Assembly (NCBI GenBank): GCA_045633845.1
Contig: JAZQZC010000036.1
Coordinates: 2,004 to 66,003, forward strand
From: Clostridia bacterium
GTDB lineage: Bacteria > Bacillota > Clostridia > UMGS1810
DNA length: 64,000 nt
Reading direction: 5' to 3'
Part shown: positions 26,951 through 63,538 of the stretch, piece by piece
Numbering within the stretch: position 1 is the first letter of the stretch
Layout: each line of letters opens with the position of its first letter
Notes under the pieces: generated by a model
Databases searched by the model: none
Seen by the model: the letters and a program-made list of their open reading frames with translations, nothing else
What the model was told of the DNA's origin: nothing
Position numbers and translations under genes: made by a program

Positions 26951-27228
26951 TAGTGTGACAGGATTCGAACTCTCAATGCCTGACATCTGAAATTTTTGAA
27001 ATCTTTCAGTTTGTCGGTTTTGACGGGCGTCAGCCCGCCTGCAACCTGTCGCACTGAAATCTCAACAAAAATTTCAAGATGGCAGGTGCAAAGCAGTTTC
27101 ACATAGAAAAATTCTTCTGAAACAAGGTAAATTACGAAGGGAATACTTGCGTATTTTCAAGGAATTTACCGATGTTTTAGGTGAATTTTTTATGTGAAAC
27201 CAATGTTGGTTCGAGTCCTGTCACACTA
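26951..27228. mobile_element. Family-2 MITE-like element, copy A (274 bp plus flanking TA/TA)
   Basis: Termini GTGTGACAGGATTCGAAC / GTTCGAGTCCTGTCACAC with TA on both sides. 260/276 identical to the inverted copy at 48823-49098. Overlaps the last 16 codons of rho. Confidence 0.85.
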
Positions 27229-31207: not shown

Positions 31208-31480
31208 GGTGACAGAGTGATAAGAGGGGTGACAGTGGGGAAGTTCCTTTGCAAAAGGTGCGTCCCCATCTGTCACAGGTTAGTGTTTGCCATATGTTCG
31301 CACAACAAGCGAGGACACACCTCTTACGAGGAATGTCCCCGTTGTCATGCGAACATCCCCATTTGTCACAGTTTAGTGTTTGCCATATGTTCGCACAACA
31401 AGCGAGGACACACCTCTTACGAGGAATGTCCCCGTTGTCATGCGAACATCCCCATTTGTCAAAACATCCCCGTTTGTCAC
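31208..31480. repeat. Family-1 palindromic repeat, locus 3 (beta hairpin + two tandem 93-bp inverted alpha units + terminal motif)
   Basis: GGTGACAGTGGGGAAGTTCCTTTGCAAAAGGTGCGTCCCCATCTGTCAC, then 31277-31369 and 31370-31462 almost identical. Confidence 0.9.
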
Positions 31481-45495: not shown

Positions 45496-45538
45496 TTTTT
45501 TCGGGACGTCCAGGAGGCCGTCCCCTACATATATTGCA

Positions 45539-45717
45539 GGTGACAGGGGGATGTTCGCATGACAACGGGGACATTCCTCGCAAGAGGTGCATAGGTGACA
45601 GTGGGGAAGTTCCTTTGCAAAAGGTGCGTCCCCATCTGTCACCGATTAATTTTTTGCCATTTGTTCGCACAACAAACGGGGACGCACCTTCTGCGAAGGA
45701 ACTTCCCCCACTGTCCC
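45539..45717. repeat. Family-1 palindromic repeat, locus 4 (alpha half + beta hairpin + linker + beta variant)
   Basis: GGTGACAGGGGGATGTTCGCATGACAACGGGGACATTCCTCGCAAGAGG...GGTGACAGTGGGGAAGTTCCTTTGCAAAAGGTGCGTCCCCATCTGTCACC...ACGGGGACGCACCTTCTGCGAAGGAACTTCCCCCACTGTC. It ends at the gatD stop codon. Confidence 0.9.
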
Positions 45718-48821: not shown

Positions 48822-49099
48822 CAGTGTGACAGGACTCGAACCAACATTGGTTTCACATGAATAATTTACCTGAAACTTCAGTAAATTCCTTGAAAATACG
48901 CAAGTATTCCCTTCGAAATTTACCTTGTTTCAGAAAAATTATTCTATGTGAAACTGCTTTGCACCTGCCATCTTGAAATTTTTGTTAAGATTTCAGTGCG
49001 ACAGGTTGCAGGCGGGCTGACGCCCGTCAAAACCGACAATCTGAAAGATTACAAAAATTTCAGATGTCAGGCAGTGATAGTTCGAGTCCTGACACACTA
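48822..49099. mobile_element. Family-2 MITE-like element, copy B (inverted relative to copy A)
   Basis: GTGTGACAGGACTCGAACC...AGTTCGAGTCCTGACACAC, flanked by CA on the left and TA on the right. 94 percent identical to the reverse complement of copy A. Lies 19 nt upstream of the EIIC-like start codon. Confidence 0.85.
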
Positions 49100-50776: not shown

Positions 50777-51050
50777 GTGACAGTTGGGGATGTTCGCATG
50801 ACAACGGGGACATTGCTCGCAAGAGGTGTGTCCTCGCTTGTTGTGCGAACAGATAAAAACTAACCAGCGACAGACGGGGACGCACCTTTTGCAAAGGAAT
50901 ATCCCCATTTGTCACTTTTGCACAAAAGAGCTCGGTGGGGGATATTCGTCCGCAGGACGTGTGTCCCCGCATCCGGGCGACCGCAAGTGACAGTAGACAG
51001 ACGGGGACGCACCTTTTGCAAAGGAACATCCCCGTCTGTCTACTGTCACC
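50777..51050. repeat. Family-1 palindromic repeat, locus 5 (alpha + beta + degenerate beta + extended beta)
   Basis: GTGACAGTTGGGGATGTTCGCATGACAACGGGGACATTGCTCGCAAGAGG... ending with a perfect 21-bp stem GTGACAGTAGACAGACGGGGA / TCCCCGTCTGTCTACTGTCAC. Confidence 0.9.
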
Positions 51051-60213: not shown

Positions 60214-60490
60214 TAGCCGAAAGATAGTAATCCGAACCTCGATTTTAAAAGGTGAATTTTCGCTTTCGTTGTGTTAAAATACTCGGTAATCCACCAAGGA
60301 TTACCTGCGTTTTTGCCTTACGCAACCAAAAATTCACTACTTTTAAAATTCCACGACCTGAACCAGATGGAATTTTGAGTAAATTTTGGTGCGGAAGATG
60401 AAGCAAGGCTGACGCCTTGCAACTAGACATAACCGAAAGTTACCCAAATTACGCTGTTTCAGGCGGGTTCGGATTACTCTCTTTCGGCTA
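60214..60490. mobile_element. Family-2 MITE-like element, divergent copy C (273 bp plus TA/TA)
   Basis: Termini GCCGAAAGATAGTAATCCGAACC / GGTTCGGATTACTCTCTTTCGGC, flanked by TA on both sides. It has the same length and helix layout as copies A/B and shares GGCTGACGCC at the same offset. Confidence 0.75.
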
Positions 60491-63281: not shown

Positions 63282-63287
63282 CTTTTT

Positions 63288-63538
63288 TGTAGGCGTTGAA
63301 GATGTGTAAGTAGCAAAAGAATTTTCTTCAAAGAGAGAGCATATCGTCGGCTGTGAGTATGCTTGTTGAAACCTTTTGTGAATTTCAGCATTGGAGCCTT
63401 CTGCGAAAAGTATTTTGCGTTAAGCAGACATTACCGTAATGGCAAAAATCGGACTAAAAGAGCGAAATTTATATTTCGAAATAGGGTGGTACCGCGAGCA
63501 ATCTCGTCCCTTACATATGGGCGATGATTGCTTTTTTG
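63288..63538 (+). promoter_or_regulatory. T-box riboswitch, Phe specifier (UUC)
   Basis: AGAGAG bay, distal-loop GCTGTGA, a specifier-loop candidate GAATTTCA (UUC followed by A), the T-box sequence AATAGGGTGGTACCGCG (63480-63496), and the terminator GAGCAATCTCGTCCC...GGGCGATGATTGC plus TTTTTT. Confidence 0.85.

Follow-up and report, generated by a model that had tools for sequence, protein, structure and literature searches.

The 64,000-nt stretch of Clostridia DNA analysed here (the window: positions 2,004 to 66,003 of contig JAZQZC010000036.1, assembly GCA_045633845.1) is housekeeping DNA, with the dcw cluster, rho, ftsK, efp and glnA among its genes, and it carries three copies of a non-coding element that we call copies A, B and C. 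Copy C, with which we are chiefly concerned, is a complete element of 273 bp on the plus strand (60216-60488), lying between a small acidic open reading frame (ORF) and a glutamine synthetase III gene. Copy A (274 bp, 26953-27226, minus strand) lies between rho and ftsK, and copy B (274 bp, 48824-49097, plus strand) between a membrane protein gene and an ORF of no known function, 19 nt upstream of a divergent start codon. The flanks of these three copies are unrelated to one another, as are those of the copies that we found elsewhere. All belong to one large homologous family of ~275-bp non-coding mobile elements in uncultured gut and rumen Clostridia, a family that is apparently undescribed so far, and copy C itself is probably a miniature inverted-repeat transposable element (MITE) moved by an enzyme encoded elsewhere.

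Copy C is bounded by a TA dinucleotide on each side (60214-60215 and 60489-60490), and its ends, GCCGAAAGATAGTAATCCGAACC / reverse complement of GCCGAAAGAGAGTAATCCGAACC, form 23-nt inverted repeats (60216-60238 and 60466-60488) with one mismatch, where 0 such pairs would be expected by chance; nothing resembling these 23-nt ends was found elsewhere in the window. The coordinates, sequences, 273-bp length, TA flanks and termini all agree with an earlier inspection of the bare letters (the sequence-only reading) that had singled out the element. Folded as a single strand, the 273 nt reach -107.6 kcal/mol (z = -10.9 against dinucleotide shuffles), and the minimum free energy (MFE) fold consists of a 22-pair terminal helix, P1, whose two strands are the terminal repeats, closing two long imperfect hairpin arms: P2 (60241-60350, 42 pairs), with covariation in its helices 1-4, and P3 (60354-60465, 35 pairs), with covariation in helices 5-8, all on the plus strand. 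Within P3 the apical hairpin GCAAGGC-TGAC-GCCTTGC occupies 60403-60420. The apex of P2 in the C-type subfamily, to which copy C belongs, is a G+C-rich hairpin (60285-60305) with an A-tract and a T-tract on either side (flanks 60275-60317); it scores as intrinsic-terminator-like on both strands, and its flanks, GTTAAAATRCTCG and CTGCGTTTTTGCC, are among the best-conserved stretches of the C-like subfamilies. The sole ORF of at least 50 aa in copy C is a 61-aa antisense one. Copy B is predicted to fold in the same layout, a terminal stem with two long arms (-115.6 kcal/mol, z = -13.1), and the predicted folds bear out the long helices inside the terminal stem that had been described for both copies.

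The mobility of the element can be seen by comparing occupied sites with empty ones. The glutamine synthetase beside copy C has a counterpart in GCA_052839005.1 (contig L199) that is 99% identical at the protein level, and this contig is 95% identical to the window at the nucleotide level and collinear with it on both sides of copy C. Where the window has the filled site ...CTTCTTTT-TA-[273 bp]-TA-GCCTTATC..., L199 has an empty one, ...GTGTACTTCTTTT-TA-GCCTTATCTGCC..., with a single TA. Copy C is also missing from a more distant relative (L195) and from L196 (the latter judged by the 78-nt gap between the flanking genes), and it is carried by L001, which is 98.7% identical to the window. Copy C is a discrete, recently inserted and TA-duplicating element, polymorphic between closely related strains. 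The 95% collinearity of the window with L199 runs from 52436 to the end of the window; to the left of 52436 the two differ, and L199 has a cellulase gene.

Copy A provides the second comparison. It interrupts rho within its final codons, with TA at 26951-26952 and 27227-27228, and the rho ORF runs into it; removing copy A together with one TA gives a predicted protein end of ...KEL-METFRKK*, and the closest Rho homologue (91% identity) ends in ...KELMETFRKK and more distant ones in ...ETFRKK, matching the prediction. The DNA of that closest relative (L067) has no element at the position of copy A. These two empty-site comparisons (copy C with L199, copy A with L067) both show a 2-bp TA duplication and place the mobility proposed by the sequence-only reading on direct evidence; its description of TA on both flanks holds for copies C and A but fails for copy B, which has CA on the left and TA on the right. 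In the window, the last 7 rho codons (METFRKK*) are swapped for 16 codons encoded by the element (27177-27228, minus strand). The listed ftsK ORF starts inside copy A; translation probably begins at the ATG of MAKKSTKK, which lies downstream of copy A.

Copies A and B, both of the A-type subfamily, are 94% identical to each other, and copy C had been thought not to align with them over most of its length. Profile searches do align them: a profile hidden Markov model from 12 A-type copies matches copy C collinearly and on the same strand (E = 2e-8), and a profile from 49 C-like metagenome copies matches A (E = 1.8e-26) and B (E = 9.7e-24) over nearly their full length. Beyond the features first listed, the short motifs ACCTG, GTGCG, GAAAG and TCAGGC keep the same spacing in B and C, and further subfamilies (L019, L021, L038 and L047 among others) bridge the A-type and the C-type. 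Because the reciprocal profile matches are collinear and on the same strand, copy C is not a remnant of an unrelated insertion sequence (IS), and the suspicion that it might be a deletion derivative of one can be dropped; copy C is homologous to A and B, beyond mere likeness of shape. The earlier phrase "two subfamilies of one structured mobile element" was right but understated: there are at least a dozen terminal-repeat variants in one homologous family.

Members of this family were sought in two scans. The first, over one genome per GTDB species with a pattern of the P3 core, returned 64 loci, among which the true members, mostly 58-nt matches, were confirmed by profile search and the high-G+C matches were due to chance. 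The second, over metagenomes with a pattern taken from the P2 apex alone, returned at least 120 loci, in which nhmmer confirmed 112 matches. Combined, the scans give at least 77 distinct full-length members of 272-289 nt, in metagenome-assembled genomes (MAGs) of Clostridia, Oscillospiraceae and Acutalibacteraceae. The MAGs that hold the members from the first scan are labelled Clostridia, Oscillospiraceae, Acutalibacteraceae, Ructibacterium, Congzhengia or Eubacteriales, with sources that include gut samples of human (Hadza), sheep, goat, buffalo and roe deer. Up to five loci occur in one MAG (JAZQEG, 5 pattern matches, with further copies added by nhmmer within those loci), and at least four end variants are found together in one MAG. 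We found no description of the family in the literature searched, and none of its motifs in the first 200 of the 408 supplementary files of a human-microbiome structured-RNA catalogue (PMC8040213). One copy of the L047 type lies on a contig binned as Hallerella sp. (L004, 7861-7992). If Hallerella belongs, as we take it to do, to the Fibrobacterota, outside Clostridia, this copy reflects either misbinning or transfer beyond Clostridia.

The second scan also settled the standing of a 10-nt block at the P3 apex, GGCTGACGCC, which occurs at nt 192-201 in both C (60407-60416) and B (49015-49024), as had been reported, and in copy A too (27026-27035, minus strand): three occurrences in the window, one per copy, against 0.03 expected in shuffles. 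The common offset stands. As a family invariant the block is rejected, its constancy in the first set having been built into the search pattern; in the second set, for which that motif was left out of the pattern, only 18 of 49 members have it exactly. The GGC/GCC stem of the apex is mostly kept in this second set, and the loops are TGAC, TGGC, TAAC, CGGC and TCGC.

Across the family, TA is found at or beside both ends in 58 of 77 elements, and a stricter test of register gives a clean TA-TA pair at 54 of 74 distinct insertion sites; among these 54, T precedes the TA in 34 and A follows it in 32. The preferred target is T-TA-A, often beside ribosome-binding sites or the A/T tracts of terminators, and several copies, C among them, directly abut such a tract. 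With rare exceptions the copies are intergenic, and both orientations relative to the neighbouring genes are seen. In 30 of 78, a ribosome-binding site with its start codon is no more than ~20 nt away, beside the 5' end of the element in 21 and beside the 3' end in 9, the 21 including one locus that was sampled repeatedly.

What is conserved in the family is the fold of the interior. RNAalifold, run on 19 representatives, predicts 63 pairs in P2 and P3, and at 43 of these both sides have changed with pairing kept, compared with 17-23 in slid controls. The shared helices, for which the sequence-only reading had named shuffled controls as the yardstick, beat them clearly: pairing holds in 91.2% of cells, against 70.7% after shuffling (0 of 500 shuffles reaching the observed value) and 36-51% with the partners slid by 1-3 columns, and the covariation score is 0.53, against 0.16 shuffled and ~0.10 slid. 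P1 is too divergent between subfamilies for alignment with MAFFT and was measured element by element; over 77 members, the outer 22 positions hold on average 19.7 Watson-Crick pairs, 0.7 G-T pairs and 1.6 mismatches. Between elements, the ungapped identity of the 5' arms is only 32%. By a gapped measure, the outer 16 nt are 0.55-0.57 identical between subfamilies, against a random baseline of 0.49, and the interior is 0.65-0.73 identical (the baseline was computed for the ends, not the interior). An inner-end motif, ATCCGAAC, is found in most subfamilies and is missing in L021, L038 and L047. A GGTTCGRAT motif is also seen in the inner terminal repeat of many subfamilies.

Both strands fold equally well (mean MFE: plus, -120.1 kcal/mol; minus, -120.8 kcal/mol), and G-U pairs number only 2-13 per ~105 pairs. 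Among the A-type copies we counted 65 pair-breaking, 18 wobble and 35 compensated changes, the compensated ones mostly common to sub-lineages, and the rate of change per site is 0.059 in paired and 0.085 in unpaired positions; we read these changes as probable decay of resident copies, with pairing kept only in lineages that are still transposing. Three features call for explanation: ends that are near-random between subfamilies yet complementary within an element, the covariation of P2 and P3, and the presence of several end variants in one genome.

Derivatives of the element are also found. Internally deleted short forms of ~110 nt occur at independent loci in three MAGs (L018, L064, L059, L040), and their left boundary is a sequence from inside the element that nearly repeats its 5' end (AGTGCGACAGG at ~nt 172, compared with AGTGTGACAGG at nt 1); in copy B this sequence lies at 48995-49006. 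Internal resemblance to the 5' end scores at least 7 in 22% of comparisons within an element and in 7% of cross-element controls; we set aside this "guide-like" copy as evidence, since it is weakly enriched and a few subfamilies are counted repeatedly. Three copies stand in tandem in L065. Rearrangements occur at the P3 apical hairpin: in L038 (4715-5170, minus strand) a complete element sits in this loop of another, and L058 (3860-4013) is a chimera whose junction, precisely at GGC-TGAC-GCC, links the 3' half of a C-type element, inverted, to that of an A-type one. In one further MAG (JAZSDP), the element lies inside a larger repeated unit (L050 2030-2469, L056 355-1348, L061 and L030), with ~441 nt common to the loci, and L056 has a perfect pair of 33-bp inverted repeats 994 bp apart with no sizeable ORF between them; this larger unit may represent nesting in another non-autonomous element.

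We read copy C, with a probability of roughly 0.7, as a MITE mobilised in trans by a DDE transposase specific for TA. Inverted repeats lie at its exact ends, the TA duplication is seen in filled and empty sites, and its relatives are of 272-289 nt and dispersed in multiple copies; that it is a non-autonomous, TA-duplicating DNA transposon of some kind we hold with high confidence. A 2-bp TA duplication together with inverted repeats of 16-28 bp is the hallmark of IS630/Tc1-mariner transposition, the classic example of staggered cutting at TA. This family is proposed as the source of the mobilising enzyme, an assignment towards which we lean only slightly. ISY100, of that family, inserts almost only at TA, duplicates it and requires no more in cis than its 24-bp repeats (PMC2170065), and the RUP element of Streptococcus pneumoniae is a TA-targeting MITE attributed to IS630-Spn1 (PMC2229807).

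Under this reading, a DDE transposase encoded elsewhere in the genome would bind the terminal repeats, make 2-bp staggered cuts at TA and move the element by cut-and-paste. Only copies with intact complementary ends and arms would propagate, so that complementarity would be held in the active "master" copies while residents decay. The three-way fold (P1, P2 and P3) might then reflect selection on the propagating copies or templated correction of quasi-palindromes, which could keep the arms complementary without selection. It may aid transposition by bringing both ends together, or blunt harm to neighbouring genes through hairpins and terminators in transcripts of either strand. The diversity of the ends may reflect many co-evolving transposases, one enzyme that reads no more than the short conserved parts of the ends (TA-RSS and, mostly, ATCCGAAC), or recognition of the fold.

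Several observations weigh against such a MITE. A terminal-repeat search allowing up to 3 mismatches, over the window and ~1.4 Mb of loci, found no larger element with matching ends, and inverted repeats 600-4000 bp apart that enclose ORFs belonged only to unrelated IS30-like (L085) and other IS elements (L162). A phmmer search with an IS630 transposase (100% identical to a Shigella sonnei protein) found no homologue in the 2677 ORFs of the loci, a single-sequence query being weak for a divergent family; Pfam found no transposase among 10 unassigned ORFs of the window; and nothing related to the element was found in plasmids and phages (by blastn) or in viral contigs (by three pattern scans). 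Conservation in an ordinary MITE family is strongest in the terminal repeats, whereas here the outer 16 nt are near-random between subfamilies while the interior stays homologous, and one sequence-specific transposase is not easily fitted to all of the end variants. The standard DDE mechanism also has no place for the covariation seen in these two arms, P2 and P3. As to the family of the enzyme, duplications of 2-3 bp are also made by other DDE transposases (IS30, and the IS427 and ISL2 groups of IS5).

Comparison with known systems places the element among MITEs, if at some distance from each. Stowaway MITEs are small, TA-flanked and hairpin-prone; the interior of our element is two independent covarying hairpins, not one fold-back. 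IS630/Tc1-mariner elements such as ISY100 share the TA target with its 2-bp duplication, ~24-bp repeats being enough in cis (PMC2170065). Unlike these and Stowaway, our family does not conserve its outer repeats throughout, and no DDE_3-type transposase with matching ends was found. RUP, a 107-bp pneumococcal MITE, is like our family in its Firmicutes host, terminal inverted repeats, TA insertion, intergenic position, multiple copies and presumed trans mobilisation (PMC2229807). The ends of RUP match a known IS630-family element, whereas the parent of our family was not found in the sequences searched; our element is also 2.5 times longer, with three covarying helices and ends that differ widely between subfamilies. 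The CIR elements of Caulobacter and Brucella consist of two long arms and the linker between them, and a terminal loop holds a conserved motif (PMC2229807). Like our family, CIR, ERIC/YPAL and Correia elements are small bacterial mobile repeats with a conserved predicted secondary structure, but they come from different phyla and have no sequence relation to it; here a transposon-end helix closes both arms, and mobility and target duplication are shown directly. Transcripts of ERIC and Correia elements affect the mRNA of adjoining genes. By every feature tested except an autonomous partner our element is a MITE, of unusual architecture.

The alternative that fares best is a structure-dependent mobile element. 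Perhaps the substrate is not the sequence of the terminal repeats but the folded single strand itself, a three-way junction with a blunt, TA-capped terminal helix, on which an HUH/Y1-type or other structure-specific enzyme would act in single-stranded DNA (ssDNA), as with IS200/IS605, REPINs and integron attC sites; the terminal helix would then be free to vary provided that it pairs. This would suit the retention of pairing in all three helices despite sequence change, outer repeats that are near-random between subfamilies and ~90% complementary within an element, the several end variants in one genome, the rearrangements at the P3 apical hairpin (the insertion in L038, the chimera in L058) and the resemblance, in some subfamilies, of the segment 5' of that hairpin to the 5' end (22% vs 7%). 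The last signal is weak, however, and comes from a few subfamilies that were counted more than once. Staggered DDE cleavage has as its signature a 2-bp TA duplication together with inverted repeats to the very tips, and nothing points to one strand as active, since both fold equally and G-T wobbles are rare. Near the copies no HUH gene turned up (the neighbourhoods were not systematically annotated). REPIN/RAYT elements and IS200/IS605-derived palindromes are likewise non-autonomous, hairpin-forming and multicopy, and their recognition depends on DNA structure, but they have neither TA duplication nor inverted repeats that reach the tips, both of which our element has, and we reject derivation from them on these grounds. 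On balance we consider the folded strand a rather improbable substrate. In a bolder form, the three-way-junction fold would itself be recognised and propagated through a single strand (ssDNA or an RNA intermediate) by a structure-specific enzyme of a kind new to TA-duplicating elements; this, too, is unlikely, but if true, recognition of the fold would explain the covarying helices, the hypervariable complementary ends and the coexisting end variants together.

Less probable still is a mobile or multicopy non-coding RNA (ncRNA) gene, transcribed into a three-way-junction RNA that would itself be functional (for example as guide or partner of a mobile-element enzyme, or as a retron-like template) and spread by duplication or retro-mobilisation. 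The fold is indeed very stable and covarying, P2 has at its foot one base pair that is G-U or U-G throughout, the apical loop of P2 in the A-type is usually GNNA, and a terminal stem with two stem-loop domains recalls retron ncRNAs (msr-msd), which fall in a similar size range and also form their terminal stem from both ends. But a retron has its RNA in single copy, with a reverse transcriptase gene directly downstream, whereas these elements are dispersed, TA-bounded and set among unrelated neighbours, and neither a reverse transcriptase nor any other partner gene adjoins A, B or C; an identity as a retron ncRNA is rejected. No promoter-like site was found in or before copy C and no terminator after the element, and with plus- and minus-strand folding energies equal we also reject a strand-specific RNA. 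The unrelated flanks, the pair-breaking changes that pile up in resident copies and the TA duplication at the exact ends, which fits DNA transposition, speak further against an RNA gene. Rfam 15 at gathering threshold matches the whole window only at a T-box (63287-63514), and at E <=10 on the C and B regions the best scores are at most 21 bits (E at least 0.65), in keeping with the earlier impression that the element is not any named RNA.

An immobile cis-regulatory element of the host, acting as terminator or leader of the neighbouring genes, has next to nothing in its favour beyond the 30 of 78 copies near a ribosome-binding site and start codon and the bidirectional-terminator look of the C-type P2 apex, and is dismissed in view of an orientation bias of only 21 to 9 with one locus recounted, both empty sites, presence/absence polymorphism at otherwise collinear loci, unrelated neighbouring genes in both orientations and the position of copy A inside the coding sequence of rho.

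One match deserves mention: several phage contigs (L068-L073) have tRNA genes whose T-arm and acceptor 3' strand are identical to the 18-nt terminus of the A-type, GTTCGAGTCCTGTCACAC. A tRNA origin is rejected, other subfamilies having no such match and the GGTTCGA-type motif lying inside a fully paired terminal helix, and we treat the match as chance or as a shared GGTTCGA motif. ARAGORN found no tRNA or tmRNA in the window.

Whatever enzyme moves it, this is an abundant family with recent activity in the uncultured Clostridia of human and ruminant guts. Insertion can rewrite the ends of genes, as with the last 7 rho codons replaced in this genome, and it places a very stable 275-nt hairpin cluster directly before many ribosome-binding sites. 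Many metagenome contigs end inside a copy, and therefore the family probably breaks assemblies. Its presence or absence varies between strains at 95% nucleotide identity and could serve in strain typing. For the study of mobile DNA, it presents an interior fold that is kept when the terminal repeats are not, which would call for either many co-evolving transposases or a single enzyme able to accept nearly any paired end.

Another repeat family in the window, unrelated to the first, consists of G+C-rich palindromic units of ~45-60 nt (e.g., GTGACAGTGGGGAAGTTCCTTTGCAAAAGGTGCGTCCCCATCTGTCAC and CATGACAACGGGGACATTCCTCGCAAGAGGTG), which form clusters with both orientations at 1553-1746, 2416-2551, 31218-31461, 45536-45717 and 50777-51042. 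These units look REP/BIME-like, and none of them was matched at the Rfam gathering threshold in the whole-window scan. The T-box leader (RF00230, 102.9 bits, 63287-63514) lies, by synteny with L199, upstream of phenylalanyl-tRNA synthetase.

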